64,000 nt of DNA from an uncultured Alphaproteobacteria bacterium. GTDB taxonomy: Bacteria > Pseudomonadota > Alphaproteobacteria > UBA8366 > GCA-2717185. The notes beneath the pieces are model-generated. The model had not been told where the DNA came from. It did not search any database and was given only the letters and a program-made list of their open reading frames with translations. The DNA lies in assembly GCA_943788635.1 (NCBI GenBank), contig CALSRA010000028.1:38520-102519 (forward strand). The letters run 5' to 3'. The translations under genes and the position numbers were made by a program. Below are positions 5,154-64,000 of the stretch, in pieces (the first letter of the stretch is position 1; each line of letters opens with the position of its first letter).

Positions 5154-6585
5154 TAGCGGATCGCCACGTGCAACAATTGTTGCATTCGTATCAAGGCTGT
5201 TCATCAGATCTGCCAGCGGCCGCTGGCATTCAAATACGATTGTGTCAGCGTATCCCGACAGCATTGGCACATAGCGGCTAAACTGCAGGGTGTCCCCGAA
5301 ACCCTGTTCCGCATGCACCAGTAATTTGCCGTTCTCAAGCGGTGCGCCGTCCCATGGAGCGCTATTAAACTGTCGTTGTGTTACGTCGCTGCATTTCAGT
5401 CGTGATTCGTAATTGCACCAGCCATTCTTGAAATCTGCGGAAAGCAACTGGGCGATGCCAAGGCCTTTTCGCAGTTCCGCGTTTTCAGGCGCTAATCCCA
5501 AAGCGCGTTCATACGCTATGATCGCCTCATCCGGCCGGTTCATATTAAGCTGGGCGAGGGCAAGACTGCCAAGAATCCGGTAATCATCCGGCGCGGATGC
5601 CAGCGCTGCACGGTACTGCTCGATAGCTTCGTCCAGCCGTTCTTCTTCGCGCAGAGAATTGGCGAGATTAAGATGCCCGTGAGCCCAGTTCGGACGAAGC
5701 CGAAGAACGTTGCGGAATTGCATTTCCGCCTGGTCATGCTGGCCTGACCGGGTGAGAATTACGCCGAGGTTATTAATAATTTCCGGATCGTCCGGCCGCA
5801 GGCGCATCGCGATATCGAGTGCGTCTTTTGCGGCTGAAATTTCGCCGGCGTCCAGCAGCGCAAGTCCAAGGTTATTGTGTGCCGATGCCAGTTCCGGCGT
5901 ATGTGAGACCGCCAGGCGGGCATATGCGATTGCCTCATCAATGCGACCGCATCCGCGCATCGCCGCAGACAGCGCGCTTTCGCATTCCGGCCAGTATTTG
6001 CCGGGTTCGGTGCCAAGAAGAGCGGACTTGAACTGCTCCACGGCGGCAACGGGTTCGCCCGCGTGATGGAACGCTAATCCAAGCTGGTATTGTATCGCGG
6101 GGTCTTCGGCGGATTGATTCAGCGCGCCCTGCAAGGTTTTCACTGCGTCCAGAGGTTGCCCGGCGCCCAGTTGCAGGTTCGCGAGATGACGTAGGGTTTC
6201 AATTTCGTCGGGCTTCAGGACGACATACTGACTCCATGCAAGAATGGCCTGATCGGTGCGGCCGGCGTTTTCCAGACATTCAGCAAAGCTGCGGCTGAAT
6301 GTAGGGTTCATCTGGTCCAGGCTTACCGCGCGCATGAAGTAACTTATTGCCGCGGTAAATTCCTGTGTCCGTGTCGCAATATGGCCCAGGATATGGAACG
6401 CTTCGGCATTTTCCGGAAAGCTGGCGATAATACCCTGGCATATCACCGCTGCAGTTGGGTATTGACGCTCGTTTTAGTGCCACACGGCCTTTTGCAGCAA
6501 TTCGCCGGGAGTGCCGACAAAGGGTTCGCCGTCCTTTCGGTCGGAGTCCGTGGTCACCGCGTAAGGCCCTTTCAGTAAGAAACAT
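5154..6585 (-). pseudogene. TPR-repeat protein with a C-terminal GT9/heptosyltransferase-like domain (FlmG-like architecture); hit three times
   Basis: Multiple TPR repeats are followed by ...LLVHAEQGFGDTLQFSRYVPML. The 3' end is cut by the IS-C terminus, and the stop codon TGA is the first 3 nt of the IS. There is an in-frame TAA at 6476-6474 (...LLQKAVWH*NERQYPTAAVICQGII...). A probable +1 frameshift lies in TTT at 6570-6572, between the ATG at 6585 and the main frame. Confidence 0.6.
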
Positions 6586-6671
6586 CCGAATCCCGAATGG
6601 TGTCGATTCGAATATCTGGCTGGCCCCTTGTCAATTGAATTAGTCCGGAAGAGAAGGCTGTAGGATACTAG

Positions 6672-7628
6672 TTACCGAAGAAAGTTAAGCAGCAACAGAC
6701 TTTGAATTCTGGCGATCGTGGCGAAGGATGCCTCCAGGGATACCTGTTCAATATTAAGGCGGGTAATCGCTTCAGCGGGATCCACTTGCTCGATGTCGAT
6801 AATTGTCTGTTCAGCAAATGCTGCAAAATTTTCATGCTTGATATTGACGTCCCGCAGCAGGACCCGGTTGAGCTCCACTTCCGAGAATAGCTCATTCAAT
6901 GTCTTTTCGCCCACCGGTGGTGCCTCGATGGCAACGGTCAATAAAGCAATGGCGTCGTCGACGGCAGTGACTTCCGCGGCACTGGGCGGGGATGTAAACG
7001 TGATTTCCGATATAGCGTCGAAGGCGCGAATAACACGCTCAATCGACGGTTCATTCGCCTTGACGCCGTAGTTGATAACGAAGTCTTCATCGATCCTGGA
7101 TTGTTGCGTGACGTTGTCGCCGCCATACCAGTCGGTATCCGCTACTGCCGGGAAGGGGGGCACCGTCGGTGGTGTATATGTGCCGTTATTGAGGTCGACA
7201 GGTTTGTTCTGGATATTACCGCCGGCAAACAGGAAACGGCTTTCGTCTTTCACGTTGAGCAGGTCCGAGATCTGATCAAGCAGTCCCTGTGCCAGTGCCG
7301 GCAGGCCGATGACATTGGCGGTTTCACCGTTTTTGGCATTCAGCAAAGTCGTGCGGAATTCATGCGAAATTCGCTCGACTCGTTCGAGCGAGAAGCTCAT
7401 CAATTCGAGGCGGCGTTCGGTGGTTTCGATATTGGAACGGAATTGTTCCACCCTGGAAAATTCGTTCCGTACGCTGACAAGGCGGCCGGCTTCCTGGCCG
7501 AGGCCAGCAAAATCCTGCGCCTTCAAACCGGTTCCCACCTGGGTCTGTGCTTCGAACAGGCGTTCCTGCGTATTCAGGGCGGTAAATACCGAGAAGCGGC
7601 TTTGGGCGATTGTGGCTATTCTGGACAA
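6672..7628 (-). CDS. flgL: flagellar hook-associated protein 3 (FlgL)
   Basis: The protein is 318 aa with flagellin-like N- and C-terminal helices, and it lies directly downstream of flgK. Confidence 0.8.
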   Translation of the reverse strand: MSRIATIAQSRFSVFTALNTQERLFEAQTQVGTGLKAQDFAGLGQEAGRLVSVRNEFSRVEQFRSNIETTERRLELMSFSLERVERISHEFRTTLLNAKNGETANVIGLPALAQGLLDQISDLLNVKDESRFLFAGGNIQNKPVDLNNGTYTPPTVPPFPAVADTDWYGGDNVTQQSRIDEDFVINYGVKANEPSIERVIRAFDAISEITFTSPPSAAEVTAVDDAIALLTVAIEAPPVGEKTLNELFSEVELNRVLLRDVNIKHENFAAFAEQTIIDIEQVDPAEAITRLNIEQVSLEASFATIARIQSLLLLNFLR

Positions 7629-7638
7629 TGCGCTGCTC

Positions 7639-9765
7639 CTATCGGACCGAATTAATCAAGGCCTCAAGCATTTCCGAAGCGACTGTGAGCACCCGTGCCG
7701 ATGCGCTGAATGCATTTTCAAGGATAACCAGTTCTGCAAGTTCTTCGTCGACGTTGACGCCGGCATCATTCGTCTGCCGGAAGACCAGTGTTTCCAGGAA
7801 GACCTCATTGAATTGCTTGTCAGTACGGGCATCCGAGGTGAGTGAGGATTGGAGGTCGACGATCTGGGCGGCAAAACTGATAATCGTCGTTGATCCGGAA
7901 TTGATGCCGCCGGTTCCCGCGAAATTCAGATTGGTGCCGAAAATGCCAGCGATGGAATTGGCAATTGCGCCGTCACCAATCGACGTACCGACGTCGCCGA
8001 CAGCGGCGGTCAGGTCGAGCTGCCCGCGAGACAGCAGGTTGGTATTGTCGGTGATGGCACTATTCACCGCGATGACATTGGCGATACCCGTGTCGTTTGG
8101 AATTGTGTTCAGTGTCGTCAGCAGCGTTCCGGAATCCGAAATGATAAAATTGTCGCTTTGCGCATCTGTAATCGTGAGGCGGCGACCACCGGAATCGTCC
8201 GTTACCGACGCGGAAATTCCCTGCGCGGTCAATGCGGCGGTTCCGTTGATCGAAGCCGCAATAGCTTCCAGTGAATCACCGGTGGCGTAAGTCACCCCGG
8301 CGCCGGCCGTTCCGTCAAACCGGAAGGTTAGTGTGCCTGCTAATCCGACAGCAGTGGTGCTGCTGGCCAGCCGACCGGTTGAATATGAATCGTAGTCACT
8401 GGCGTTGGTACCGGTCGTCAGAAAGTCGTTTAATCCGAAGAAGTGGGAAAAGCCGCGGGTTAAGCCGCCGGCGACGGTTACGGCGCTGGTGTTTTCGCCA
8501 ATGGATATGCCCTGGTTTGCTGCCTGCGCCTGGATCTCCAGTTTACCGTCCGCATTCACAGATGCGGGTGTCCCGGTAAGCCCGGCATTTATCGCTGTAA
8601 CCACATCGGCGACTGTTGCGGTGGCGCCCAGTCCGGCCAGGTTTATGTCGGTGAATTCGACAACTGCCCCCGTCGTCTGATCCAGTACTGCAATGCGTAC
8701 TGACCCGGTCCCGGCAAAGGCATCTGTCGCGGCAAGACTATGTGTTCCTGTCAAGGTTGCCGGCGGTGGGAATGCCGTTCCCTGATTGTGCAAGGCATTG
8801 ATTTGTGACGTCAGAACCGAAGAAAGGCGATCCATCTCGCTTTGCAGGTTTGGCAGAATGGCATCCCGCACGTCGATCAGGCCTGCAATCTCGCCTTCTG
8901 AGATCTGGGTAGTGATGTCGTTTGCCCCGGTCACGCGATCCGCCGTACCGACGTAAATACCGTCGATGCTTCCGGGGTAATTCGCGTCTCCCGGCTGCAC
9001 AAACGCGGTGCTGGCGTCGGTCTGGGAAGCAGAGTTATGCGACAGACTGAACAATGATCCTTCGCTCAACAACGTCCGGCCACCACCGGTGAATATACTC
9101 ACCTTGCCACTGCCCGCTTCGAACGTCCGAATATCGATAAGTTGTGAAATCTGGGCGATGGCGACGTCCCGCTGGTCGCGCAGTTCGCCGTCAGGTTCGT
9201 TCGATGCGACAGCCTGGGCTATTTTGGAATTGAGGTTTTCCACAAAGGTAAGCTGCTGGTTGATTGTATCGATGCCGGTCGAAATCGACTGGTCAGCTTC
9301 AGCCCGAAGTGACTGTATGGCCGTGGTAAGTTGGCTGATCTGCACCATTGTCTTGCGGGCGTCATTGACCGCAGTGAATCGCGCCGCATCGGATTCCGGC
9401 GACAATGCCAGCGTTTCGAAATTATTGTTCAGCGTCGTCAATCCGGCAGCAAAGGTATCATTGTTGTCCGGGGTGCCCAGGAAGCCCTGTATCTGTGACA
9501 GGAACTGTTCACGCGCGTTGATAGCCCCCAATTTGCCACTCTGGTCTCGAACCTGTTCGACCAGGAACTGGTTAACGTTGCGCGTGACATCTATGACATC
9601 GACGCCAGCGCCCAGATCAACCAACCGCCGAGGCGAAAGTTCGACCTGTTTCCGGGTGAATCCGTCGGTGTTTACGTTGGCGATATTGTTGGCATTAACC
9701 TGCAGGGCCAGTTGGCTGGCCTGAATGCCGGAAAGTGCGGTTTGAAGGGCGAGGGATATCGACAT
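7639..9765 (-). CDS. flgK: flagellar hook-associated protein 1 (FlgK)
   Basis: The protein is 708 aa. The N-terminus MSISLALQTALSGIQASQLALQVNANNIANVNTDGFTRK is the flagellar basal-body rod/HAP motif. Confidence 0.9.
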   Translation of the reverse strand: MSISLALQTALSGIQASQLALQVNANNIANVNTDGFTRKQVELSPRRLVDLGAGVDVIDVTRNVNQFLVEQVRDQSGKLGAINAREQFLSQIQGFLGTPDNNDTFAAGLTTLNNNFETLALSPESDAARFTAVNDARKTMVQISQLTTAIQSLRAEADQSISTGIDTINQQLTFVENLNSKIAQAVASNEPDGELRDQRDVAIAQISQLIDIRTFEAGSGKVSIFTGGGRTLLSEGSLFSLSHNSASQTDASTAFVQPGDANYPGSIDGIYVGTADRVTGANDITTQISEGEIAGLIDVRDAILPNLQSEMDRLSSVLTSQINALHNQGTAFPPPATLTGTHSLAATDAFAGTGSVRIAVLDQTTGAVVEFTDINLAGLGATATVADVVTAINAGLTGTPASVNADGKLEIQAQAANQGISIGENTSAVTVAGGLTRGFSHFFGLNDFLTTGTNASDYDSYSTGRLASSTTAVGLAGTLTFRFDGTAGAGVTYATGDSLEAIAASINGTAALTAQGISASVTDDSGGRRLTITDAQSDNFIISDSGTLLTTLNTIPNDTGIANVIAVNSAITDNTNLLSRGQLDLTAAVGDVGTSIGDGAIANSIAGIFGTNLNFAGTGGINSGSTTIISFAAQIVDLQSSLTSDARTDKQFNEVFLETLVFRQTNDAGVNVDEELAELVILENAFSASARVLTVASEMLEALINSVR

Positions 9766-9796
9766 TGATAGGGTTACCTATCCGTTGCTCTGGTGT

Positions 9797-10240
9797 CTAA
9801 AGGCTTCGGTTAAGAGATGCCGGGCGCGGTGGCGGTGCGCCTCTGGTGTATCCCCCGGGCGATGCGCCGGTATTTGTATAACCGGTCGCAGGGCTGGCGC
9901 TCTTCGTCACAGCATTCGCAATGACCTGTACGAGCTTTGCATTCATGTCGAGCGCGGCTCTGACGGCGAAGGCGTTTTCTTTTGCCTTCGTCTGAAAACG
10001 CGTCATCACCTGCTCCAGATCGGAACGGACATCCGGCTCAATGCCGGCCAGTGCGCCGGGTTCTTCCGCTGCCTGGCGTATATGCGTTTCGTAGATACCG
10101 GTCAGCGAAGCCTTTTGCTCCTGCAAGGGGGCGATGTCCGAAGCCTTGCCATTTTTCAAAAGCTCGATTTCCTCGGACATGATGTGAATCAGCGATTCTG
10201 ATACGCCAATAAGTTCATGGGCGCGCGCATTCGGGTTCAT
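9797..10240 (-). CDS. FlgN-like flagellar export chaperone (putative)
   Basis: The protein is 147 aa, helical, and has an ...EEIELLKNGKASDIAPLQEQKASL... pattern. It sits between flgJ and flgK. The assignment rests on context plus weak motif similarity. Confidence 0.45.
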   Translation of the reverse strand: MNPNARAHELIGVSESLIHIMSEEIELLKNGKASDIAPLQEQKASLTGIYETHIRQAAEEPGALAGIEPDVRSDLEQVMTRFQTKAKENAFAVRAALDMNAKLVQVIANAVTKSASPATGYTNTGASPGGYTRGAPPPRPASLNRSL

Positions 10241-10587
10241 TTCGTTTGCTCCGGTTGTTGCGTTGCGGAATCAGCTTTTTCCTGCATCTCCAGAATTGCC
10301 TTTTGAACGGAATCGGCAATTCCGATACCGCCTGCTTGCGTGATGATTTTTCCGTATTCCTGCAGCATCATCGAGCGGAAGACTGATTCGCCCTGGCCAC
10401 CGCCGAACATGCCGTCGGTCTTGATGCCGGTGTACATCTGCTCGATATATTGACCGATGAAGAATGCCTCGAAGGATTCCGCTGTTTCGCGCGCCTTGCT
10501 GGGGTCGCTTGTCCCTTTCAGCGTCGGCGGTTGCGCGTAGCGAGCGGCTTGCTGGGTCAGATCGACTGTTCCGGAAATGTCCATCAA
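10237..10587 (-). CDS. flgJ: rod-binding protein (FlgJ N-terminal domain type, no muramidase domain)
   Basis: The protein is 116 aa. ...AESFEAFFIGQYIEQMYTG...GESVFRSMMLQEYGKIITQAGGIGIADSV is typical of the alphaproteobacterial rod-binding FlgJ/CheL family. Confidence 0.75.
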   Translation of the reverse strand: MMDISGTVDLTQQAARYAQPPTLKGTSDPSKARETAESFEAFFIGQYIEQMYTGIKTDGMFGGGQGESVFRSMMLQEYGKIITQAGGIGIADSVQKAILEMQEKADSATQQPEQTK

Positions 10588-11741
10588 AGCACCTGTATGT
10601 CAGCGTTGAGTGCGCCCGCGGCCTTAATCGCCTGCAGGATCGTGATCATGTCGTGGGGCCCGATTCCCAGAGAATTGAGCCCGTTGACCAGTTCCTGCAG
10701 GCTGACGCCGGTATTGAGCACCGTCAGTTTCTTGTCGCCACCTTCATCAATCGTAATTTCCGTACGCGGCACGACTTCCGTGGTTCCGGTGTTGGCAAAG
10801 GGAAGGGGCTGGGAGACCTGCGGGGTTTCCGTTACCCGGATGGTCAGTGCGCCTTGCGCGATTGCAACAGGGTTGATGCGAACATTCTCACCCATAACGA
10901 TGGTGCCGGATTGTTCGTCGATAACGACCTTGGCAATCTGATCGGGTTCGACCCGCAGTTGTTCGATGTCGGTGATCAGTTCAATTATTTCGCCCTTGTA
11001 GTTTTCAGGCGTTTTCATCACGACGGTTGCCGGGTCGGTTGCGCGGGCGGCAGGGAGGCCGACGAACGCATTGATAGCGCGTGATATTCTGCGGGCGGTC
11101 GTGAAGTCCGGATTACGCAGCGAGAGCTTGATTTGCTTCCGGTTCGCCAGCTGGAAGGGAATTTCGCGCTCAATGATTGCGCCATTGGCGATGCGCCCGC
11201 TGGTTGGAACGCCCTTGATGACGGTCTCCGCCGCGCCGCCTGCAGCGAAGCCGCCAACCGCTATTGTTCCTTGGGCGACGGCATAAATTTCGCCGTCGGC
11301 GCCGACCAGTGGTGTCACCAGCAGGGTCCCGCCGAGCAGGTTATCGGCATCGCCGAGCGCCGATACGGTTACGTCAATATTCGTACCCTGATTCGAAAAC
11401 GGGGGGAGTGACGCTGTGACCATGACAGCGGCAACATTGGCCGTCGTCAGGGCGTCATCACGTGCGTTAACGCCGAGCCTTTCGAGCATGCCGATCAGGC
11501 TCTCGCGGGTGAAAATGGCGCTGCTCAGGCTATCGCCGGTGCCATTCAATCCAACGACGAGACCATAGCCGACGAGTTGGTTGGAACGGACGCCTTCGAA
11601 GAAAACGATGTCCTTAATTCGCGATTGGCCCATGGCCGAAGCGTGTACGAACAGAACCAGGAGCACGAGGACAGCCACGAAAAGGCTCAGCTGGCCCTGT
11701 ATGGTGACCCCTGCGCGCAGTATGTCTCGTCTGTTTGTCAT
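10584..11741 (-). CDS. flgI: flagellar P-ring protein FlgI
   Basis: I chose the start at the ATG 11741-11739 (MTNRRDILRAG... with a signal peptide ...HASAMG). RIKDIVFFEGVRSNQLVGYGLVVGLNGTGD is the FlgI signature. The tracked ORF extends further upstream but without homology. Confidence 0.9.
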   Translation of the reverse strand: MTNRRDILRAGVTIQGQLSLFVAVLVLLVLFVHASAMGQSRIKDIVFFEGVRSNQLVGYGLVVGLNGTGDSLSSAIFTRESLIGMLERLGVNARDDALTTANVAAVMVTASLPPFSNQGTNIDVTVSALGDADNLLGGTLLVTPLVGADGEIYAVAQGTIAVGGFAAGGAAETVIKGVPTSGRIANGAIIEREIPFQLANRKQIKLSLRNPDFTTARRISRAINAFVGLPAARATDPATVVMKTPENYKGEIIELITDIEQLRVEPDQIAKVVIDEQSGTIVMGENVRINPVAIAQGALTIRVTETPQVSQPLPFANTGTTEVVPRTEITIDEGGDKKLTVLNTGVSLQELVNGLNSLGIGPHDMITILQAIKAAGALNADIQVL

Positions 11742-11785
11742 TCCGGCCTTCAACTTCGGATTAAGAGAGATTTCGCTATAGCTGT

Positions 11786-11801
11786 AGCGAAAGCCGTGCC
11801 A
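11786..11801 (-). promoter_or_regulatory. putative sigma-54 (-24/-12) promoter of the flgI operon
   Basis: The minus strand reads TGGCACGGCTTTCGCT, with the GG and GC elements at canonical 12-nt spacing, about 45 nt upstream of the flgI ATG. Confidence 0.45.
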
Positions 11802-12006
11802 ACGGGCGTCGAAAATAAGGTGTTGAAATGATGGGTTTAATTGTTGGGTCTGGAATGTTGCCAATTGACACGGTGCCGTTATCGGCAAGCGGTGCCGGTA
11901 AGCCCGGCAAAGATTTCCGTGAGTGGGGAGATGGGGAACCTGTGCAGTCGTGGTTGTAATTTGAAATAAGGTTCCGTTGCCTGCTGAAAAACAGTAAGCT
12001 GTGTGT

Positions 12007-12432
12007 ATGAAAATTGATTCCTCAGGCAGGGTTCGCCCTTCGGCGGGCGGCGCGAAAGGCAAAGCAGGAAAGGTTGAAAAGGGGAGCGGGTTTACCGATC
12101 ACCTTTCACCGCAAACGGATTCCGTTGCCTCGGTTGCCTCTTCGTCACCGACGCAAAGCGTCGACGCTTTGCTGGCAATACAGGGCGTCCCGGATGCAAC
12201 GACGGGGCGGGCGAATGCGCGGGCCCGGCAGTGGGGCAATGACGCGCTTGATCAGCTTGAGCAGATACAGACCGATTTGCTTTTGGGTGGGATTCCCAAG
12301 GGGCGCCTCATGAACCTGGCACGGATGGTTCAGGAACGCCGGGAGCATGCTGCTGATCCGGCTCTGACCAGCCTGCTTGACGACATTGAATTGCGGGTCC
12401 GTGTCGAAATTGCAAAATACGAGCCGCGCTAG
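12007..12432 (+). CDS. fliX: flagellar assembly regulator FliX
   Basis: The N-terminus MKIDSSGRVRPSAGGAKGKAG..., ...SVDALLAIQGV... and the C-terminal ...DPALTSLLDDIELRVRVEIAKYE follow the Caulobacter FliX pattern. The gene is divergent from flgI, as in Caulobacter. Confidence 0.75.
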   Translation: MKIDSSGRVRPSAGGAKGKAGKVEKGSGFTDHLSPQTDSVASVASSSPTQSVDALLAIQGVPDATTGRANARARQWGNDALDQLEQIQTDLLLGGIPKGRLMNLARMVQERREHAADPALTSLLDDIELRVRVEIAKYEPR

Positions 12433-12551
12433 GGTCTTCGGGCCGTCTAAAACTGCCAAAAATGTACTTTCGTTTCCGGGGCTTGCAGGACCGTTGCGCG
12501 CGAATATATAGTGCGCGCCGGTTTTGTGAACATACCCGTGGAGCGAAACAC

Positions 12552-12968
12552 ATGTACCCAACGCTTCCGCCAGACTATCGGCCATCGGAAGACGAAGAGT
12601 TTATGAATCCCCTGCAACAGGAGTATTTTCGCCAAAAATTGATGCAGTGGCGTCGACAACTTTTGAAGGATACCGGGGATACCCGTACCAATTTGAAAGA
12701 AGAAAACCTGGCGGAACCTGATCTTGCGGATCGGGCGACGTTGGAAACCGACCGGTCTCTCGAACTTCGAACGCGGGATCGGCAGCGCAAATTGATCAAC
12801 AAGATTGATTCCGCGTTGCGACGAATAGAGGACGGTTCGTACGGATATTGCGAAGAAACGGAGAATCCGATTTCCCTGCGACGACTGGAGGCGCGACCGA
12901 TCGCGACGCTGACCATTGAAGCGCAGGAAATGCATGAACGGATGGAACGGACCCACCGTGACGATTGA
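12552..12968 (+). CDS. dksA: DksA-family RNA polymerase-binding factor, Zn-finger-degenerate type
   Basis: The start is at MYPTLPPDY. ...DRATLETDRSLELRTRDRQRKLINKIDSALRRIEDGSYGYCEETENPISLRRLEARPIATLTIEAQ retains only one of the four canonical Cys residues. Confidence 0.8.
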   Translation: MYPTLPPDYRPSEDEEFMNPLQQEYFRQKLMQWRRQLLKDTGDTRTNLKEENLAEPDLADRATLETDRSLELRTRDRQRKLINKIDSALRRIEDGSYGYCEETENPISLRRLEARPIATLTIEAQEMHERMERTHRDD

Positions 12969-13082
12969 GTAACGCGATAAACCGTTCGCGGTATATTCGT
13001 TGCTAAGCTGACGCCTCGCGTGTCATGGCGCGGAAGTTTCTGCGTATCGGTTCTTGCCCTAAACGGTAGCGCCGGGCAGGTG

Positions 13083-13844
13083 CTAGAAGGGGAAGATGAT
13101 ATCTATCAGCTGATTGCCGTACCGGGGTTGCTGGAAGTCCGATAATTGGCCGCGTCCGCCGTAAGATACGCGTAATTCCGCAATCTGTTCATGCGGGATT
13201 GTATTCGAGTTGGTTATATCCTGCGGTCGAATGACACCGGCGAGCTGGATCTCGCGGACTTCGAAATTTACCCGAATTTCCTGACGGCCATGCAGAACCA
13301 GGTTTCCATTCGGCAGCACCTGGGTAATGACCGCAGCGACCTGCAAGGTAATTTGTTCATCACGCGCGATTGTGCCATTGCCGTTGTTTGAAGTGGCGCT
13401 GTTGACGTTGAGCAGATTGGCGGGGTCGACAGCTTGAGGAAGCAGCCGGTTCAATGCGGCCTGATATCCGAGCAGGGCACTGGCGTCTGCATCTTCGGTA
13501 CTGGCGCGGGTTCGTTCGGTTTCATTCTCCAGATCGGCCTGATCATCCACTTCAACGACGACAGTGACGATATCGCCAACCTGTGCTGCGCGGAGATCCT
13601 TGAAAAACGCACGTGATCCAGTCCGCCACAGAGAATTCGGATTATGCCGCGCGAGTATTGGCGCCGGCATCGGCATGCTGACTGGTTTGTATGTTTGCGT
13701 CTGTGTCGGGTTTTGAATATCCGACATTGTCGGTGCTTCGCCGACACCAGATAGACGACTCAATGCGTTGCATCCTGACAGGGCGACGCCAATAACGGCG
13801 AGGCAAAAAAACCGTGTGACATTCGAAGTATGGATCGCGGTCAT
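13083..13844 (-). CDS. flgH: flagellar L-ring lipoprotein FlgH
   Basis: The protein is 253 aa with the lipobox VALSGC, and the C-terminal ...RVSYGGRGQLSDFQQPRYGNQLIDIIFPF is the FlgH signature. Confidence 0.9.
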   Translation of the reverse strand: MTAIHTSNVTRFFCLAVIGVALSGCNALSRLSGVGEAPTMSDIQNPTQTQTYKPVSMPMPAPILARHNPNSLWRTGSRAFFKDLRAAQVGDIVTVVVEVDDQADLENETERTRASTEDADASALLGYQAALNRLLPQAVDPANLLNVNSATSNNGNGTIARDEQITLQVAAVITQVLPNGNLVLHGRQEIRVNFEVREIQLAGVIRPQDITNSNTIPHEQIAELRVSYGGRGQLSDFQQPRYGNQLIDIIFPF

Positions 13845-13852
13845 TTTGAATC

Positions 13853-14812: not shown

Positions 14813-14826
14813 GACAACAATCCCGG

Positions 14827-15612: not shown

Positions 15613-15623
15613 GAATTTTACCC

Positions 15624-16352: not shown

Positions 16353-16395
16353 TCTGGTCCCGTTCCTGAGGCTTTCAATACTCGAGAAAGCAGGA

Positions 16396-16412
16396 ATGCA
16401 TGGGCCATGCCA
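16396..16412 (-). promoter_or_regulatory. putative sigma-54 (-24/-12) promoter of the flgFGAH operon
   Basis: The minus strand reads TGGCATGGCCCATGCAT with correct GG/GC spacing, about 45 nt upstream of the flgF ATG. It sits in an AT-rich region divergent from fliL. Confidence 0.45.
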
Positions 16413-51088: not shown

Positions 51089-51089
51089 T

Positions 51090-53227: not shown

Positions 53228-53767
53228 CGTTTGCGTGTGGCTTTGCTGTATCGTGGAAGATTCTGCCGGGTTTGGGCGTATCTGATGCGAATCATGTCAG
53301 TGTTTGGCGACATTTGCGGACATTTTGAGGGAATGCAGCCATTGCGAAGTACAGCTGTATTCGAAACAGGAGCCGGGATATCGGGATGGATTTGCCCTGG
53401 CCTTGAATTCCGCAGCCTCGATGCGGGGCATCGAGTAATTCTCCCGCAAGTGTAAAAAGCCAGTTAAAGCACAGTACTGGGAATCTTGAACAACGGAACC
53501 ATTACTGTTTGGGAACATTTCGGGTTCGCGAAGAACACCAGAGCATATGATTTCAAGACTATCCTGCAACGGTCTGTCCTACTGTTCGGCTTTACTTCAC
53601 GATACGCATCTTTACCCTATATTTACTATATCCGTGCCACGATTCACGCTGTAAGGCAAAAGTACTAAGAAGAGCGTAACGGTTTGGAAAGACCCTAAGC
53701 GTCACATTGGTATTGGATTTGCAGGTGTCACGCGGCGCGACAAAGACAGGTGGTACAGAGGCCGGTC

Positions 53768-55820: not shown

Positions 55821-55885
55821 GGCGTGCACGCGCAGACGAAGCGTATGGGCGTACCCAGGTTATTAACCATAAAACTGCAGGCGGC

Positions 55886-56851
55886 ATGACACGTAAAAAC
55901 GATATCGATACGGCGACAGGCGAGCGGCTGTATCGAATGCTTCGATTGATCCGGCGGGTCGAGGAAGAAGTCGGACGGATATATCCGAGCGACAGAATCA
56001 AGAGCCCGGTCCATCTTTCCATTGGCCAGGAATCCGTTGCCGTCGGCGTATGTGATCCGCTGCGCCCGGATGACGTTGTCTCCGCAACCTACCGAAGCCA
56101 TGCGGGCTATCTTGCAAAAGGTGGTGACCTGCGCGCGATGTTCGCCGAGCTGTATGGCAAGGCAACGGGCAACGCGGGCGGCAAGGCCGGCTCGATGCAT
56201 CTTGTCGATATGGCACATAATGTTCTGGGGTCGTCGGCCGTTGTCGGTACGACCGTACCTATTGCGCTTGGGTATGCTTTCGCGATCAAACAGCGAAAGG
56301 AGGACCGGGTGGTTGTGGCGTTCTTTGGCGATGGCGCGACCGAGGAAGGCGTGTTTCACGAGAGTCTGAATTTTGCGTCGTTGAAGAAACTGCCGGTTCT
56401 GTTCGTCTGCGAAAATAACCACTTTGCTATTCACCAGCCGCTGAACAAACGCTGGGCGACGGATCAAATCTGCGCACGGGTTGAAACCTACGGCATTCCG
56501 GCCGAACGCATCACCGACGCCAATACGGAAACGATCCGCGATTGCACGCAGGAAGCGCTCGCCAATATCCGGTCCGGTCAAGGCCCGGCCTTCCTGGAAT
56601 GCCTGACCTGGCGCTGGCGCGAACATGTCGGTCCGGGCGAGGATTATGACGCCGGGTTCCGTGACCGCAGCGCACTGGAAGCCTGGCAGGAAAAGGACGA
56701 GGTGGAACGTATGGGCGCGGCGCTTGATGGTGCGAGCCGTTCACGGATCGATGCCGAAATCGAAGCTGAGATCGCGGATGCCATCGAATTTGCGGAACGC
56801 AGCCCGTTCCCGGAAGGCAAGGAGCTGTATGCGCATGTCTACGCCGAGTGA
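55886..56851 (+). CDS. TPP-dependent dehydrogenase E1 alpha-like subunit
   Basis: The start is MTRKNDIDTATGERLYRMLRLIRRVEEEV. It contains ...HLSIGQESVAVGV..., ...FFGDGATEEGVFHESLNFASLKKLPVLFVCENN... and is 321 aa. Confidence 0.8.
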   Translation: MTRKNDIDTATGERLYRMLRLIRRVEEEVGRIYPSDRIKSPVHLSIGQESVAVGVCDPLRPDDVVSATYRSHAGYLAKGGDLRAMFAELYGKATGNAGGKAGSMHLVDMAHNVLGSSAVVGTTVPIALGYAFAIKQRKEDRVVVAFFGDGATEEGVFHESLNFASLKKLPVLFVCENNHFAIHQPLNKRWATDQICARVETYGIPAERITDANTETIRDCTQEALANIRSGQGPAFLECLTWRWREHVGPGEDYDAGFRDRSALEAWQEKDEVERMGAALDGASRSRIDAEIEAEIADAIEFAERSPFPEGKELYAHVYAE

Positions 56852-57899
56852 ATCGGGCCGTCTACTGACTTATGTCGATGCCCTGTGCGAAGGGCAGGCG
56901 ATGGAAATGCGCCGTGATGACGAGGTGTTCGTCTTCGGCCTCGACGTGGATGATCACAAGGCCATTCAGGGGTCGACCCGTGGGTTGCTGGATGAATTCG
57001 GACCCGAACGTGTCTTCACCACACCGCTGAGCGAGGACGCCATGACCGGCGTTGCGATCGGCGCGGCCATGGCGGGGATGCGGCCGGTGCATGTGCATAT
57101 TCGCATGGACTTCCTGATGCTGTGCATGAACCAGCTCGTTAACATGGCGGCCAAAAGCCATTACATGTATGGCGGTCAGGTCTCCGTGCCGATGGTCGTG
57201 CGCTGCATGATCGGCAAGTCCTGGGGGTAGGGGGCGCAACACAGTCAGGGGCTGCATTCGATGTTGATGCATGTCCCTGGGCTGAAAGTGGTGGCGCCGT
57301 CGAATGCCTATGACGCCAAGGGCCTGCTGGCCACGGCCATTCGCGACAACAACCCCGTGATCTTTGTCGAACATCGGTTGCTGTATTTCACTGAGGCCTA
57401 TGTGCCCGAGGAAAATTATGCGGTGCCGTTCGGCGTGGCCCGAATCGTCCGCAAGGGGGATGCGCTGACCATTGTCGGGGTCTCCAACATGCTGGTCGAA
57501 TGCTTGCGTGCGGCGGAACTGCTGGCGGAAGTCGGGATCGAAGCGGAAGTGATCGATCCGGTATCGCTGGTGCCACTGGATATCGAAACGATCACCCGGT
57601 CAGCCGCACGTACGGGCAAGTTGCTGGTCGTTGACAATGCCTGGACCAATTGTGGCGCCAGCGCGGAAATCATCGCCGGTGTTGTGGAACGTACCGACCG
57701 TCCGGTGATGGCACGCCGCATGGGCTATGCGCCCGTGACCTGCCCGACCACGCCGGTGCTGGAAGACGACTATTATCCGAACCCGGTGACCATTGCGACC
57801 GCTGTTCATACGATGGTGCGCCCGGATCAACCCGTCTGGGAGCCCGATCCGGAACATGCGAAACTTGCCTATCAGGCCCAGTTCAGGGGACCGTTCTAG
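56829..57899 (+). pseudogene. TPP-dependent dehydrogenase E1 beta-like subunit, in-frame TAG
   Basis: ...LTYVDALCEGQAMEMRRDDEVFVFGLDV...CMIGKSWG is followed by TAG (57228-57230) and then GAQHSQGLHSMLMHVPGLKVVAPS... in the same frame. This family typically has a sense codon there (often Gln). Confidence 0.78.
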
Positions 57900-57902
57900 A
57901 CA

Positions 57903-59072
57903 ATGTTTTATGAACTGGCGGTATCAAACTGGGGCGATGAAGAAAAGGCCGCGATAGCCGGCTGTGTCGAGGAAGACCGTTTTACCATGGGGCCCAAGGT
58001 GGCGGCGTTTGAGCAGGCCTTCGCCGATTATCTGGGCTGTCGCCACGGTGTGATGGTGAATTCCGGCTCGTCGGCCAACCTGGTCGCCGTCGCCAGTCTG
58101 TTCTTCAAGAAAGATAACCCGTTGAAGCCCGGTGACGAGGTGATTGTTCCGGCCCTGTCCTGGAGCACCAGCTACCACCCGCTGCAACAATACGGGCTGA
58201 AGCTGAAGTTCGTGGATATCGAGCTCGATACGCTGAACGCGGATTGTTCCCAGCTTGAAGCGGCGATGAGTGACCGGACACGGATGATCATGGCGGTGAG
58301 TATCCTTGGCAATCCGGCGGCGCTGGACGTGATGCGTGATTTCGCCGATGCGAAGGGGCTTTACTTCCTGGAAGACAATTGTGAATCGCTGGACGCGGAA
58401 CTGAATGGCCGCAAAGCCGGAAGCTTCGGTGATATGGGGACGCACAGTTTTTTCTTTTCGCATCATATCGCGACGATGGAAGGGGGGATGGTCGTTACCG
58501 ACAACACCGAACTGTTCCATCTGATGCGCAGCCTGCGCGCGCATGGCTGGACCCGCGATCTTCCGCGCGACAGCGACGTCTTCGAAGCGCGGGATGACGA
58601 TTTTTTCGAGGCCTATCGGTTTATCCTGCCGGGATACAATGTGCGGCCGATGGAAATGTCGGGCGCGATCGGTATCGAACAGTTGAAAAAACTGCCGGCG
58701 ATGACGCTGGTGCGGCGGGCCAACCTGAAGCTGTTTCAAGACCTGTTTGGCGGTGACGAGCGCTTTATCATCCAGCGCGAAAACGGCAAGAGTTCAAGTT
58801 TCTGTTTTCCGATTATCCTCAATCCGGCATGCAACATCGATCGCACTGCCGTATTCGCCGCATTGCAGAAGGCGGATATCGGCTACCGGATTATCACGGG
58901 TGGCTGCTTCCCGCGGCATGATGCGATCCGCCATTTCGATTTTGAGATCACGGACGGTATCGACCGGGCGAATATCGCGCATGATTGCGGGTTCTTCGTC
59001 GACAATCATCCTTTCGATTTAACTCCGCAGATCGAGCGGGTTCATGCCGTTCTCGACAAGGTTTGCAAATAG
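57903..59072 (+). CDS. ColD/RfbH(E1)-type PLP/PMP-dependent nucleotide-sugar 3-dehydratase (DegT family with His replacing the Schiff-base Lys)
   Basis: The protein is 389 aa. It has ...MVNSGSSANLVAV... and the motif SFFFSHHIATMEGGMV. Aminotransferases of this fold have Lys at the position where this protein has HH, as in GDP-4-keto-6-deoxymannose 3-dehydratase. Confidence 0.65.
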   Translation: MFYELAVSNWGDEEKAAIAGCVEEDRFTMGPKVAAFEQAFADYLGCRHGVMVNSGSSANLVAVASLFFKKDNPLKPGDEVIVPALSWSTSYHPLQQYGLKLKFVDIELDTLNADCSQLEAAMSDRTRMIMAVSILGNPAALDVMRDFADAKGLYFLEDNCESLDAELNGRKAGSFGDMGTHSFFFSHHIATMEGGMVVTDNTELFHLMRSLRAHGWTRDLPRDSDVFEARDDDFFEAYRFILPGYNVRPMEMSGAIGIEQLKKLPAMTLVRRANLKLFQDLFGGDERFIIQRENGKSSSFCFPIILNPACNIDRTAVFAALQKADIGYRIITGGCFPRHDAIRHFDFEITDGIDRANIAHDCGFFVDNHPFDLTPQIERVHAVLDKVCK

Positions 59073-59080
59073 GAACTGTC

Positions 59081-60025
59081 ATGAGCGAAAAGCCTTCCAT
59101 TCTTGTCACCGGTGGCGCCGGGTATCTTGGTTCAACGCTTGTACCAATGCTGCTGGCGGAAGGGCATAGGGTGACCGTGCTGGACAGTTTCATGTTCCAG
59201 CAGGCGTCGCTGAATCATATCTGCGCCGACCCGAATCTTGATATCCAGCGGGGCGACACGCGTGATGAACGGGCCGTGCTGCCGCTGCTGGAAAAACATG
59301 ACATCGTGATTCCGCTTGCCGCACTGGTCGGTGCGCCGCTCTGCGCGCGTGATGCCGTCGGGGCGGAGACGATTAACCGGGATGCGATCCGGATGCTGGC
59401 TGACAAGATGTCCCGTGATCAATGGATGCTGACCCCGATCACCAACAGCGGCTATGGCGTCGGGGAGGCAGGCAAGTTCTGTACCGAGGAAACGCCGATG
59501 CGGCCTATCTCACTGTATGGCCGGACCAAGGTCGAAGCCGAAATCGCCGCGCTTGGCCGGGAGAACGCGATCAATTTCCGCCTGGCCACCGTCTTCGGTA
59601 TGTCGCCGCGTATGCGGTTGGACCTGCTGGTCAATGACTTTGTCTATCGCGCAGTGAACGATCGCACGATTGTTCTGTTTGAGGCACATTTCAAACGCAA
59701 CTTCATCCATGTTCGGGATGTGGCGCGCGCTTTCCTGCATGGCATTTCGAATTTCGAGAGCATGAAGGGTGAGCCCTATAATGTGGGCCTGTCGGATGCC
59801 AACCTGTCCAAGGCCGAACTCTGTTCGGTCATCCGCCAGCATCTGCCGAACTTCATGCCGCTGGAGGCGGAAGTAGGCGAGGACCCGGACAAGCGGGACT
59901 ATATTGTTTCCATCGAGAAAGTGGAAGCGACGGGGTTCAAGCCCGCGTATTCGCTGGACGACGGTATTCGCGAATTGATCAAGGGCTACAGGATGATCAA
60001 CGACAGCCGCTACAGCAATGTCTGA
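59081..60025 (+). CDS. extended SDR (NAD-dependent epimerase/dehydratase/reductase family)
   Basis: It has MSEKPSILVTGGAGYLGS and the catalytic YGRTK, and is 314 aa. Its 3' end overlaps the next gene by 8 bp. Confidence 0.75.
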   Translation: MSEKPSILVTGGAGYLGSTLVPMLLAEGHRVTVLDSFMFQQASLNHICADPNLDIQRGDTRDERAVLPLLEKHDIVIPLAALVGAPLCARDAVGAETINRDAIRMLADKMSRDQWMLTPITNSGYGVGEAGKFCTEETPMRPISLYGRTKVEAEIAALGRENAINFRLATVFGMSPRMRLDLLVNDFVYRAVNDRTIVLFEAHFKRNFIHVRDVARAFLHGISNFESMKGEPYNVGLSDANLSKAELCSVIRQHLPNFMPLEAEVGEDPDKRDYIVSIEKVEATGFKPAYSLDDGIRELIKGYRMINDSRYSNV

Positions 60026-60768
60026 CGGATTGGCGGATATCGATGTGGTTGTCCTCGCGGGCGGATTGGGGACCCGGTTGGCCGGGGTACTGGAAGGTAC
60101 TCCGAAGGTTCTGGCGCCGATTGACGGCCAACCCTATATCGCCTTCCTGCTTGGCTGGTTGCGACGGTTCGGCGTCCGGCGGGTGATCTTCTGCCTGGGG
60201 CATCTGGCGGAACAGGTCGAAGACTGGCTGACGGAACACCCCATAAAAGGCATGAGTGTCGAAACCGTCCGCGAGCCGGCACCGGCGGGCACGGCCGGTG
60301 CCTTGCGCTACGCCATGGCGAAAATTGAAAGTGACCCGGTCATGGTTATGAATGGCGATTCCTTTATCGACGGCGATCTGTCCGGTTTTGCCGGGGATTT
60401 TTTATCGACGGAGGCTGCTGCCTCTGTGATGTGTGTCGAGGTTCCGGACTGCGCCCGGTTCGGCCGCATCCAGTTGACCCCGGAGGGCAGTATCGAAAAG
60501 TTTGCCGAGAAGGACCCGGCGATGGCTGGGCCGGGGTTGATCAATGCCGGGGTCTATCTGTTCAGTCGCCGGTTTCTGGAATCGGAAACCGTTAGTCGTG
60601 CAACGTCGCTGGAACGCGACGTGTTTGCCGCCGCTGCGCCCGGAACGATCCATTGCTTCCCGGAAAAAGGGACGTTTCATGATATTGGAACGCCGCAAAG
60701 CTTAGGCGGCTGCGGCGGCCATTCTGGCGCCCTATCGGGACAGCGCCAGCGGAGGGCCCGCGTTATGA
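60018..60768 (+). pseudogene. hddC: sugar-1-phosphate nucleotidylyltransferase (HddC-like), +1 frameshift near the 3' end
   Basis: The N-terminus is VVLAGGLGTRLAGVLEGTPKVLAPIDG.... After ...FHDIGTPQSL the +1 frame gives AAAAAILAPYRDSASGGPAL*, ending in a TGA that overlaps the next ATG (ATGA at 60765). The slip is at GG 60705-60706. As sequenced, the frame instead runs into hddA. Confidence 0.65.
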
Positions 60769-61771
60769 TCATTTGCCGCACGCCGTTTCGGGTATCGCTG
60801 TTTGGGGGCGGCACCGATTTTCCCGCCTGGTACCTCAGCCATGGCGGATCGGTGCTTGGCACCCACCATCAACAAGTATTGCTATCTGACCGTACGGTCC
60901 TTGCCGCCGTTCTTTGAACACCGGCACCGTGTCGTTTATTCCCGCATCGAACTGGTGAAGGAAATCAGCGAAATACAGCATCCGTCCGTGCGGGCGGCGA
61001 TGGGCGAGATGGGCATGGAGCACGGGCTTGAAATTCACCATGACGGCGATTTGCCAGCCCGGTCGGGTCTAGGTTCCAGTTCGTCCTTTACGGTTGGGTT
61101 GCTGAACGTGTTGCATGCGTTTCGCGGCGAAATGGTTTCCGCCAAGGAACTGGCCCGCGAGGCGATCCGAATTGAGCAGGAAGTGATCGGCGAAGCGGTT
61201 GGCTCACAGGATCAGGTCTGGGCTGCCTATGGCGGGTTGAACCGGATCAATTTTTCGCAGGGACGGCTCATTCGATGTGCAGCCGGTGGTCATCGACCCG
61301 GAACGCCGGGAATTGCTGAACGACCATATCATGCTGTTCTTCACCGGGTTTTCCCGAATTGCGGCAAATGTGGAAAAAGAAAAAATTGCCAATGTCGACA
61401 GCCGCAAGACCCAGCTTCGCGCGCTGGGCGCGATGGTCGATGAGGGCATCCAGATACTGCAGAACCGGAATAGCGATATCACGGAAATCGGCGAACTGCT
61501 CAATGAAGCGTGGCGCCTGAAGAAGGAAATGTCGGACAAAGTGTCCACCAGCGCCATCGACGACATCTACGATGCGGCGTTAGACGCGGGTGCACTCGGC
61601 GGCAAACTGCTGGGTGCCGGGGGCGGGGGCTTCCTTTTGTTGTTCGTCGCGCCGGAGAACCAGCCGGCGGTGCGCGAGCGGCTCACGAACCTGACCCACG
61701 TATCGGTAGAGATCGGCAGTCCCGGCAGCCGCATCGTCGTGTACGAGCCGGATGGAACGGGAACGCACTGA
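60765..61771 (+). pseudogene. hddA: GHMP-family sugar kinase (D-glycero-D-manno-heptose 7-phosphate kinase HddA-like), two +1 frameshifts
   Basis: MIICRTPFRVSLFGGGTDFPAWYLSHGGSVLGT joins TINKYCYLTVRSLPPFFEHRHRVVYS...GDLPARSGLGSSSSFTVGLL...INFSQ, which joins DGSFDVQPVVIDPE...GGKLLGAGGGGFLLLF.... The slips are at CCC 60862-60864 and GGG 61260-61262. Confidence 0.7.
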
Positions 61772-61784
61772 GGGACGGGACAGC

Positions 61785-63036
61785 ATGAGCGTGCCTGAAG
61801 CGGTTCACGTCGTCCGGCAGGCGCTTGAAAAAGGAAATATCGGCCGGGCGGATATTTTGAGCCGCCATATGCTGGAAGCGATACCGGATAGCCCCTGGCC
61901 GCCATTGCTGCTTGCCGAGGTCGCGCTGCGGGTGGGGCGACGTTGCGTCGGCCCGTCGCTGGAATGCCGAAGCATCACGGGCGCTCATCCTGCGGGATAA
62001 TGGCTCGTTTCCCGAAGCGGAAGCGGAACTGCGGCGGCTGGACGTTGCACTGGATAAAGCCGTTCCGCCGCTCCGTCAGGGCGGTTTTCTGCTGATCAAA
62101 TGCTGGGGTTACGGCCTGTGGTCCGATGTCGAACATGTGCTGTCATCGTTGCTTCTGGCGGAGATGACGGACCGGGTTCCGATTGTCCATTGGGGCGACA
62201 ACAGTTTCTACATTGACGACGGAACCGATGATGCGTTCGGGTCATTGTTCGAGGCGATAGCGCCGCTGACATTGGCGAAACTGGCCGCTGAAGAGGGGGA
62301 TATCTATCCGCCGAAATATCGCCGGAATAATCTCGACGAGGTTGGGTTGAATATCTGGGATGGGCCGTATTCGCGCCTGTCTGGGCTTTACCTGCTGAAC
62401 CGCCCGGAGCGGATCGTCGTCAGCGATTTCTTTACCCAGGTTGCCGAATTGCTGCCCTGGTTATCCCCCGGACATTGGTTGCACGGAAAACCGGTGCTGA
62501 CGGCCATCCGCCTGCTGCACGAAAAGTATCTGGCCCCCGCGCCGGATATCCGAAACCAGATAGATGGTTTCGTTACTCAACACTTTGAAAGCCGGCCGGT
62601 GCTGGGCGTGCATGTCCGAAACGTGGACAAGGCGCTCGAAGACCCGGCCTTTGCGGAAGAGAACCACGCGATCCCGGCTATGGTTAACAAGCATATGACC
62701 GAAGCCGCGCAGCTACGCTTGTTTCTCATGACGGATTCCGCGCAGGTGATCGAAACCTATAGGGCCCGGTACGGCGAGCGGGTTTTTCATACGGATTGTG
62801 CCCGGGCGAACAATCTCGTGCCGCTGACATGGCGTGACACGGCCGACAGGCGACAGCTTGGCGTCGAGGTTATCCTGGATACCTATATCGCCGCCGCCTG
62901 CGACTATTTCATCGGGCATGGTGGGTCGAATGTCGCCTGCATGGTTGCCTGTTTGAAACAATGGAAACCGGGAACAATTCAATTGATCAGAGACAACATA
63001 AAGACCCGTCGAAACTGGCTGCTACACGATTGGTAG
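61785..63036 (+). pseudogene. N-terminal TPR-like segment fused to a NodZ/fucosyltransferase-like (GT23-type) glycosyltransferase, +1 frameshift
   Basis: MSVPEAVHVVRQALEKGNIGRADILSRHMLEAIPDSPWPPLLLAEVALRVG joins DVASARRWNAEASRALIL... at the G4 run 61934-61937. The C-terminal part ...VLGVHVRNVDK..., ...LFLMTDSAQVIETY... and ...DYFIGHGGSNVACMVA resembles NodZ-type transferases (weak call). Confidence 0.45.
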
Positions 63037-63040
63037 CGGA

Positions 63041-63444
63041 CTATTCCTTTGCGCTGCTGCCATACAATGCGGACGGGTCCACTTCGACGTTGGCGATGGT
63101 GACGAGTTCACCGTCGCGCACTGCCTGGAAAAAGCAGTTTCGTCGCCCGGTATGGCAGGCGACGCCTTTCTGGTCGACCAGCAGCAGCAAGGGTATCGCC
63201 GTCGCAATCAATGCGCATTTCGACGAGGTGCTGTCTCTGGCCCGAACTTTCGCCCTTTCGCCAGAGCGACTGCCGCGACCGCGACCAGTAACAGACCTTC
63301 TTGGTGTCCAGGGTCTCGGTGACGGAATCGACATTCATCCAGGCTACCATCAGAACTTCGCCGGTATCATGCTGTTGTGCGATAGCGGGGACCAGGGCCG
63401 TTGGAATCGAAGGTGATGGCGTCGAGGATGCTGTTTGTCGTCAT
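63041..63444 (-). pseudogene. hisI: phosphoribosyl-AMP cyclohydrolase HisI, two +1 frameshifts
   Basis: [16 protein letters not shown] joins [69 protein letters not shown], which joins [20 protein letters not shown].... The slips are at 63395-63397 and 63189-63190. Confidence 0.8.
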
Positions 63445-63458
63445 GATCGTTTCCGGTT

Positions 63459-64000
63459 TCAGGCAGCGCTGTATCGGTCGAGGCCGGCAGACAGGTCTGC
63501 GATTAGGTCGTCAACATCTTCCAACCCGACATGGATGCGCATCGTCTGGCCGCCGGGCTCCCAGGTTGTGGCGGGTCCGGTTGCTTGCCGGTGAATTGGG
63601 AAGCAGCAGGCTTTCATAGCCGCCCCAACTGGCGCCCATTCCGTAGAATTTGAGCGTATCCAGCAAGGCCGACAGTTTCGCGCGTGACGGATCTTTCAGG
63701 ACGAAGCCGAACAAGCCGCTGGCGCCCGTAAAATCACGCTTCCACAAAGCATGGCCCGGATCGTCGGGCAGGCCGGGATGCATGACCTTGATGACTTCGG
63801 GATGCGCGTTCAGCCAATTGGCCATTTTCAGGCCGTTATCGTTGTGCCGATCCATGCGCACGCCGATGGTCCGCAAGCCGCGCAGGGCGAGGTAGACATC
63901 GTCCGGACCGGCGCAAAGCCCGTAACTTCCGGCTGCGTCTTTCACCTGTGCAAAGGTTTTTTTCGTTACAGGCAATCGTTCCCATCATGACGTCGGAATG
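63459..64000 (-). pseudogene. metC: cystathionine beta-lyase-type PLP enzyme (MetC-like), C-terminal part in the window, two +1 frameshifts
   Basis: HSDVMMGTIACNEK joins TFAQVKDAAGSYGLCAGPDDVYLALRGLRT...GASWGGYESLLLP, which joins IHRQATGPATTWEPGGQTMRIHVGLEDVDDLIADLSAGL.... The slips are in the T7 run 63957-63963 and at TT 63596-63597. The gene continues beyond 64000. Confidence 0.7.

Follow-up and report, generated by a model that had tools for sequence, protein, structure and literature searches.

We analysed a window of 64,000 nucleotides (positions 38,520 to 102,519 of contig CALSRA010000028.1, assembly GCA_943788635.1, from an uncultured alphaproteobacterium), in which many genes are split by insertions or deletions (indels) of a single base. 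Most of these indels are probably errors left in the consensus of a long-read assembly, while the underlying genome is in fact gaining insertion sequences (IS) and losing genes. The indels are private to the source contig and are not distributed as the verified substitutions are, although not every one of the 18 to 20 one-base indels need be an error. Of the two readings that the initial annotation had left side by side, long-read consensus errors and true pseudogenisation, the former is the better supported for the frameshifts; the latter is supported for the premature stops, the IS truncations and the near-neutral substitution ratio, and is shown for no frameshift. The finding is a quality flag for this assembly, not a discovery.

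Comparison with orthologues in the closest relatives, a check that had been proposed together with those readings, was run on contigs that share 99.1-100% identity with the window and belong to about 20 other public assemblies. Exact-protein look-ups retrieved them, partly as SPIRE scaffolds from a single sample series of 2018, partly as MEGAHIT contigs and partly from the Logan assemblies of several runs. Projected by BLAST onto window coordinates, these contigs span 43,436 bp (6659-25728, 28256-32305, 39708-46758 and 50736-64000), and the broken genes are unbroken in the other assemblies. Run ERR9769286 yielded two contigs that match the window at 100% identity, L005 over 28256-32305 with the IS junction at 32278 included and L007 over 56711-60518, and therefore come from the same strain; together they amount to 7,858 bp. 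The source contig, 136,110 bp in NCBI/ENA, spans several identical IS copies of 2-2.6 kb, a length of repeat that short reads do not bridge, whereas the related short-read contigs stop at IS ends; from this we infer a long-read assembly.

Nineteen frameshifts had been reported for the window and 18 of them exist. Eleven lie at the DNA level exactly where they had been placed (17067, 20374, 23558, 44347, 60705, 60862, 61260, 61934, 63189, 63395 and 63957). Four are real but had been mislocated by 2-24 bases, those given at 18654, 18849-18853, 55638 and 63596 being found at 18652-18653, 18861-18862, 55614 and 63573-63575, respectively, and three are established at the protein level only. The remaining one, at 6570-6572 on the minus strand and ascribed to a TPR-glycosyltransferase gene, has to be withdrawn: the site is non-coding DNA upstream of a GTG start at 6557-6555, and the unbroken relatives P0303 and P0304, of 667 amino acids, begin with (V/M)TTDSDRKDG, which places the start downstream of 6570. 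The description of the shifts as exclusively +1 does not hold either, since three one-base deletions had been missed (51129, 51176 and 51616), nor do all of them duplicate a neighbouring base, as the G inserted at 55614 shows. In the following lines, "absent" means that the extra or missing base is not present in the overlapping related contigs, of which there were 1-10 per site.

17067-17069, plus strand: fliL, window-only extra T (TT to TTT), absent in 10/10 contigs; FliL is shortened from 179 to 139 amino acids.
18652-18653, plus strand: DUF6468 gene, window-only extra G (G to GG), absent in 8/8 contigs.
18861-18862, plus strand: motE-like gene (MgtE_N domain), window-only extra C (C to CC), absent in 8/8 contigs.
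20374-20375, plus strand: cheZ, window-only extra A (A to AA), absent in 4/4 contigs.
23558-23561, plus strand: AMIN/TPR gene, window-only extra C (CCC to CCCC), absent in L020 and L021.
44347-44351, minus strand: trpC, window-only extra base lengthening a C run from 4 to 5, absent in L016.
47302-47303, minus strand: putative cyclase gene, first frameshift, protein level only, position of the inserted base approximate.
47627-47628, minus strand: putative cyclase gene, second frameshift, protein level only, position of the inserted base approximate; a Pfam Cyclase match (1-141 of 142) crosses the junction.
48400-48401, plus strand: gene for a thiamine pyrophosphate (TPP)-dependent enzyme, extra G (G to GG), protein level only.
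51129-51130, minus strand: glycosyltransferase gene (944 amino acids in relatives), window-only one-base deletion (GG to G) against L008.
51176-51177, minus strand: same glycosyltransferase gene, window-only one-base deletion (TT to T) against L008.
51616-51620, minus strand: same glycosyltransferase gene, window-only one-base deletion (five G to four) against L008, L011 and L012.
55614, plus strand: radical-SAM gene, window-only inserted G, absent in L008, L011 and L012.
60705-60706, plus strand: hddC-like nucleotidyltransferase gene, extra G (G to GG), absent in 7/7 contigs.
60862-60864, plus strand: hddA-like GHMP kinase gene, site 1, extra C (CC to CCC), absent in 7/7 contigs.
61260-61262, plus strand: hddA-like gene, site 2, extra G (GG to GGG), absent in 8/8 contigs.
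61934-61937, plus strand: NodZ/FUT8-like glycosyltransferase gene (416 amino acids), extra G (GGG to GGGG), absent in 7/7 contigs.
63189-63190, minus strand: hisI (133 amino acids), site 1, extra A (A to AA), absent in 4/4 contigs.
63395-63397, minus strand: hisI, site 2, extra G (GG to GGG), absent in 4/4 contigs.
63573-63575, minus strand: metC-like gene (Cys_Met_Meta_PP), site 1, extra G (GG to GGG), absent in 4/4 contigs.
63957-63963, minus strand: metC-like gene, site 2, extra T (six T to seven), absent in 4/4 contigs.

Taking out one base reproduces the proteins of other contigs residue for residue in the case of FliL, CheZ, the TPP enzyme, TrpC, HddC and MotE. Thus the repaired FliL of 179 amino acids is found exactly in 15 contigs, and exact copies of the repaired MotE-like protein (221 amino acids), CheZ (219) and TrpC (268) exist in 5, 7 and 10 other contigs, respectively. 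The TPP enzyme minus one G, at 549 amino acids, is exact in 10 other contigs and the repaired HddC-like protein of 249 amino acids is likewise exact in others, whereas the window's own 430-residue TPP fragment and 299-residue HddC product are known from the source contig only. The AMIN/TPR protein measures 1155 amino acids in relatives and its gene is unbroken at that length in L020; unbroken HddA-like proteins of 334 amino acids are on record with 98-99% identity to the repaired window sequence; and the repaired cyclase (246 amino acids) needs no gap when aligned with its orthologues from L029, L030 and L045, to which it is 56-60% identical. Pfam matches also cross the junctions in FliL, in the DUF6468 protein (profile positions 1-76 of 76, at the 18652 junction), in TrpC (IGPS, 1-253 of 254), in the TPP enzyme and in HddC. 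In the 944-residue glycosyltransferase gene the three deletions at 51129-51617 sum to -3, so that the frame is restored after the third and about 160 codons are read out of frame.

Over the 43,436 bp compared, the window-private indels are 15 insertions and 3 deletions of one base each (P = 0.004 against equal rates), and all 18 of these DNA-verified events are absent from every overlapping contig. Among themselves, the other contigs show 1 indel event versus 136 substitution sites, and the window shows 18 versus 53 (Fisher P = 1e-8). At 13 of the 18 sites the ancestral run was at most two bases long, and the indels come in bursts, with three within 490 bp and eight within 3.3 kb. The uneven distribution reported earlier is borne out: the flg block, 28.3-32.3 kb and 39.7-44.3 kb, together 18.3 kb, are free of all 18 (P = 5e-5), and the eight sites reported for the end of the window correspond to eight indels in its last 3.5 kb. 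It is not, however, a distribution that follows the substitutions. Across four zones that look relaxed, private substitutions are even (chi-square P = 0.86) and indels are not (P = 0.006). Frameshifts are neither proportional to neutral substitutions nor of the usual spectrum, as seen in adjacent dead or dispensable stretches, where 56.7-60.5 kb holds 0 indels and 6 private substitutions and 60.5-64 kb holds 8 and 4 (P = 0.013); the first of these stretches contains a dead transketolase gene, yet no indel. A surplus of indels relative to substitutions cannot be the work of selection, which only removes mutations.

Contigs of the same strain and its close kin point the same way. Over their 7,858 bp, L005 and L007 carry 9 private substitutions but not one of the 18 indels (P = 0.028). 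The sister run ERR9769287 supplied L010, the closest relative in the last 4 kb, where it has the window's alleles at six sites that vary among other strains, and all five genes are unbroken in it at the eight sites. Four genes (hisI, metC, hddA and the cyclase gene) were hit twice each at a divergence of about 0.1% from unbroken alleles, a double hit that in the 402 bp of hisI has P = 0.004. Moreover, the frameshift-derived products of 139, 142, 430, 199, 164, 299 and 205 amino acids are on record from the source contig only (7/7 tested), whereas 5/6 window-specific products that do not depend on indels are also present in Logan assemblies (versus 0/7, P = 0.005), a test that comprises few data points, some of them on the same contig. 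Exact look-ups of the FliM ORF, the 299-residue HddC product, the 139-residue FliL fragment and P0128 gave no match in an index that apparently lacks the source contig, and carry no weight in either direction. Proteins combining the repaired frame with the private allele (DUF6468, HddA, HisI, NodZ-like, 944-residue glycosyltransferase and cyclase) are not on record, and the same-strain data cover neither form. Run length was rejected as a discriminator, as the rate goes up roughly threefold with each additional base, which is compatible with slippage in cells as much as with sequencing error; nor was the total number of indels taken to decide the matter by itself.

Long-read assemblies are known for short indels that break up genes, their dominant residual error (PMC12007338). 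Similarly to the indel errors of PacBio and Nanopore assemblies, those in the window are single-base changes, mostly in the length of short runs, that split otherwise unbroken genes, are private to one assembly and occur in bursts; they vanish against short-read assemblies of the same organism, and the same test by comparison with a reference was used in PMC12007338. Unlike them, the Nanopore errors of PMC12007338 are mainly deletions in long runs, whereas insertions make up 15 of the 18 in the window and mostly affect runs one or two bases long. The technical cause, we infer, is low or single-read coverage or patchy polishing. Insertions at runs of one or two bases fit raw PacBio-type errors or over-polishing better. 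If so, the organism would have been present at low coverage, and stretches with several accurate reads would be clean, these being the stretches that a k-mer-based assembly of the same run can rebuild; thinly covered stretches would retain read-level indels that no accurate read corrected. Such errors would then overlie real insertions of IS21 and IS256 elements, premature stops and substitutions almost unfiltered by selection.

The decay beneath the indels is of an ordinary kind and real, being carried by premature stops and IS insertions. The window's lineage has about 50 private substitutions (18745 A, 60998 C and 63235 C are examples), evenly spread at 1.2 per kb, and those falling inside the same-strain contigs are confirmed in 9/9 cases. 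Among the polarised ones, 25 change an amino acid or create a stop and 9 are silent (2.8:1), against 36 and 90 (0.4:1) for the polymorphisms among relatives (P = 3e-6); this strain really is under relaxed selection. The private substitutions are biased from GC to AT (19:10), and their transition to transversion ratio of 22:14 does not suggest a mismatch-repair mutator. Four premature stops are found in the window, three of which (17296-17298, 54398-54400 and 57228-57230) the initial annotation had missed.

6474-6476, minus strand: stop in the TPR-glycosyltransferase gene (TAY to TAA, Y28*), a gene also cut by an IS end at 5153.
17296-17298, plus strand: stop in fliM (TGG to TGA, W17*), window-only, with G in 9/9 related contigs.
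54398-54400, plus strand: stop in the radical-SAM gene (TAC to TAG), window-only.
57228-57230, plus strand: stop in the gene for the transketolase C-terminal subunit (CAG to TAG), also present in the independent same-strain contig L007.
25675-28284, plus strand: complete IS21-family element with istA (517 amino acids) and istB (254 amino acids), from Pfam.
636-1273 and 2661-4641: second copy of this first IS21-family type, split by an IS256-family element at about 1274-2660.
32278-34700 (right end approximate), plus strand: second IS21-family type with istA (505 amino acids) and istB (293 amino acids).
4642-5153: end copy (512 bp) of the second IS21-family type, truncating the TPR-glycosyltransferase gene at 5153.

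Two of the four stops are independently confirmed, that at 57228 in L007 and that at 6474 through the 431-residue product P0302, which combines this stop with the IS truncation and is also on record from a Logan assembly. The inactivating lesions with independent confirmation are thus stops and IS insertions, with no frameshift among them. The second IS21 type sits in a luciferase-like monooxygenase gene that is unbroken in relatives, and its junction at 32278 is also found in L005. In related short-read contigs, which break off in these IS termini, the termini are found elsewhere (29052 and 29255), and the IS insertion sites therefore differ between strains. The earlier statement that the IS DNA is free of frameshifts agrees with our alignments, in which copies of the first IS21 type are identical over 1981 bp (100%) and 99.84% identical over 638 bp; all IS copies taken together show one mismatch and no indel over 3.1 kb, and the transposases match Pfam full-length. 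The sparing of gltA and gltX was likewise supported by full-length Pfam matches, except that gltA does not lie at 29.4 kb, where an O-antigen-ligase-like gene was found, and the citrate synthase gene is at 35975-37402. As for fliM, its product has 365 amino acids in relatives and 346 in the window. At the N-terminus of the relatives' FliM (window 17248-17310) an acidic motif, DDDAVAxEWAAMA, is duplicated in tandem; W17* falls in its first copy and Met20 stands directly after. Judging from this arrangement, a restart at Met20 could still yield a FliM of 346 amino acids that keeps the second motif copy.

Related strains carry lesions of their own in several of the same genes. The hddA-like gene (60767-61771) was knocked out independently in at least two other strains, by a stop at codon 139 in L011-L014 and by a GAA to TAA change at 61505 in L015, and further stops occur in hddC (188-residue forms), in the radical-SAM gene (L012) and in the epimerase gene (L013). 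In L025, a -1 shift in an A run of motE (window 19204-19214) cuts the protein to 132 amino acids, and frameshifted forms of the TPP enzyme and of a 228-residue motility protein also exist in relatives. The mix of lesions differs, with stops and frameshifts at about 5:3 in relatives versus 4:18 in the window (P = 0.03). The whole glycan cluster seems dispensable in this population, which really is losing these functions. A Logan contig of 12,323 nucleotides has the same -1 shift in the motE A run, shares the CheY D115 allele with the window and encodes a FliL shortened at its N-terminus to 143 amino acids; it looks like another decaying strain.

Could all or most of the indels then be real? The strain would be in early decay with IS expansion and insertion-biased slippage, and frameshifts would survive in dispensable genes for motility accessories, chemotaxis, surface glycans and the trp, his and met pathways. 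We consider this unlikely, though it has a good deal in its favour, and much of the same evidence weighs against consensus errors. The strain is really decaying, with its four stops (two of them confirmed) and its IS truncations in the same gene classes as the frameshifts. Its private substitutions are near-neutral at 2.8:1 and biased from GC to AT, so some real frameshifts are to be expected. No indel is found in gltA, gltX, lexA, moeA, moaC, the flg rod and ring genes or the transposases. The relatives' independent lesions in hddA (twice), hddC, radical-SAM, epimerase and motE mark these genes as dispensable. Duplication of a neighbouring base is also a signature of replication slippage in cells, and the total fits the highest natural ratios of indels to substitutions; in mutation-accumulation lines of Bacillus subtilis the ratio is reportedly about 0.36, at the top of the known range, and at such a value 18 indels are not excessive. 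The same-strain contigs that were retrieved, L005 and L007, cover no indel site. Furthermore, Nanopore assemblies usually err toward deletions (PMC12007338), so the insertion bias of the window requires a particular platform or polisher. What speaks against real indels is that their density is decoupled from private substitutions even among clearly dead genes (P = 0.006 and 0.013). The 15:3 bias is unusual and the 22:14 ratio gives no hint of a mutator, 13 of the 18 sites are at ancestral runs of at most two bases, the products derived from indels are found in no independent assembly where other strain-specific products are, the same-strain contigs have no indel, and L010 is unbroken at all eight sites in the last 4 kb. 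It would also be odd if the structural genes of the flagellum had escaped the damage that struck fliL, motE and cheZ, as all of them would be useless together. A known parallel is early decay with IS proliferation of the Sodalis glossinidius type, with which the window shares identical IS copies, IS-truncated genes, an excess of amino-acid-changing substitutions on its lineage and premature stops in motility, surface-polysaccharide and biosynthesis genes. Pseudogenes of recently host-restricted bacteria show many kinds of lesion and a deletion bias. The window differs from the Sodalis case in that its confirmed lesions are stops and IS only, in that the frameshifts are unconfirmed and insertion-biased, and in a divergence from unbroken strains of merely about 0.1-0.2%. 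Should the insertions nonetheless be real, which appears rather doubtful, this would be a marine Rhodospirillales-like lineage at the onset of decay, in which an unusually insertion-biased process at short runs, outpacing substitutions, would be disabling genes for motility accessories, surface glycans and amino-acid biosynthesis while IS21 and IS256 elements expand.

Other explanations fare worse against the same data. A chimeric consensus of co-occurring strains, itself a variant of artefact in which badly merged reads would give local bursts of indels and perhaps some unverified private substitutions, fits with the many near-identical strains that co-occur across the sample series and with the bursts themselves (three in 490 bp and eight in 3.3 kb). 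L007 also begins at 56711, right next to the private substitution at 56710, the kind of break expected where a de Bruijn graph leaves a variant unresolved, and run ERR9769286 may contain more than one strain. The strains differ by substitutions only, though, so merging alone should not make one-base insertions, and single-sample contigs match 7.9 kb of the window at 100% identity; such a chimera is improbable. Frameshifts with a function, whether by programmed +1 ribosomal frameshifting (as in prfB), transcriptional slippage or phase-variable homopolymer switches for motility and surface-glycan genes, would have in common with our sites the +1 shifts at runs of identical bases within coding sequence; surface glycans and flagella are classes that are phase-variable in other bacteria, and two sites are in longer runs (five C at 44347 and seven T at 63957). 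Yet most runs are of one to three bases and have no useful slip rate, no conserved slippery motif or any other motif is common to the sites, and housekeeping biosynthesis genes (trpC, hisI and metC) are affected, with several genes hit twice. All related strains encode these proteins in a single frame and none shares the shifted arrangement, and a functional role is accordingly so improbable that it hardly enters the balance.

If the indels are errors, as we favour, counts of pseudogenes, metabolic reconstructions and claims of genome reduction that are based on this assembly would be inflated. About 13 genes of the window would be wrongly called dead, trpC, hisI and metC among them, leading to false requirements for amino acids. 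What would remain as real are fresh IS21 and IS256 insertions, a few premature stops and relaxed selection, together with the independent knock-outs of the same surface-glycan cluster in other strains. If the frameshifts are real, the window would offer a modestly interesting case of very early, insertion-biased gene decay.

The window has a G+C content of 52-61% and is devoid of tRNA genes. Besides the features given above, its gene content is as follows.

6.7-25.7 kb: flagellar and chemotaxis block.
29420-30739: O-antigen-ligase-like gene (Wzy_C, DUF5935).
35975-37402, minus strand: citrate synthase gene (gltA).
Elsewhere in the window: gltX, comEC, lexA, moeA, moaC, trpCDG, the putative cyclase gene and the gene for the TPP-dependent enzyme.
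50.4-63 kb: surface-glycan cluster with the 944-residue glycosyltransferase, radical-SAM, E1/transketolase subunit, DegT aminotransferase, epimerase, HddC-like, HddA-like and NodZ-like genes.
Window end: hisI and metC.

The nearest named relatives are uncultured marine Rhodospirillales/Rhodospirillaceae genomes at a protein identity of 70-91%, and the organism itself is taken to be a marine alphaproteobacterium of Rhodospirillales type. A scan of GTDB genomes with the TPP enzyme yielded no genome of the same species, its top match being 91% identical, and supplied the cyclase orthologues and a rough taxonomy; in a scan of JGI metagenomes with FlgF, the sole relative found was 53% identical. 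Finally, L003 and the window differ over 30753-31946 by an in-frame length difference of 15 bases in a CoA-transferase gene (402 versus 397 amino acids).

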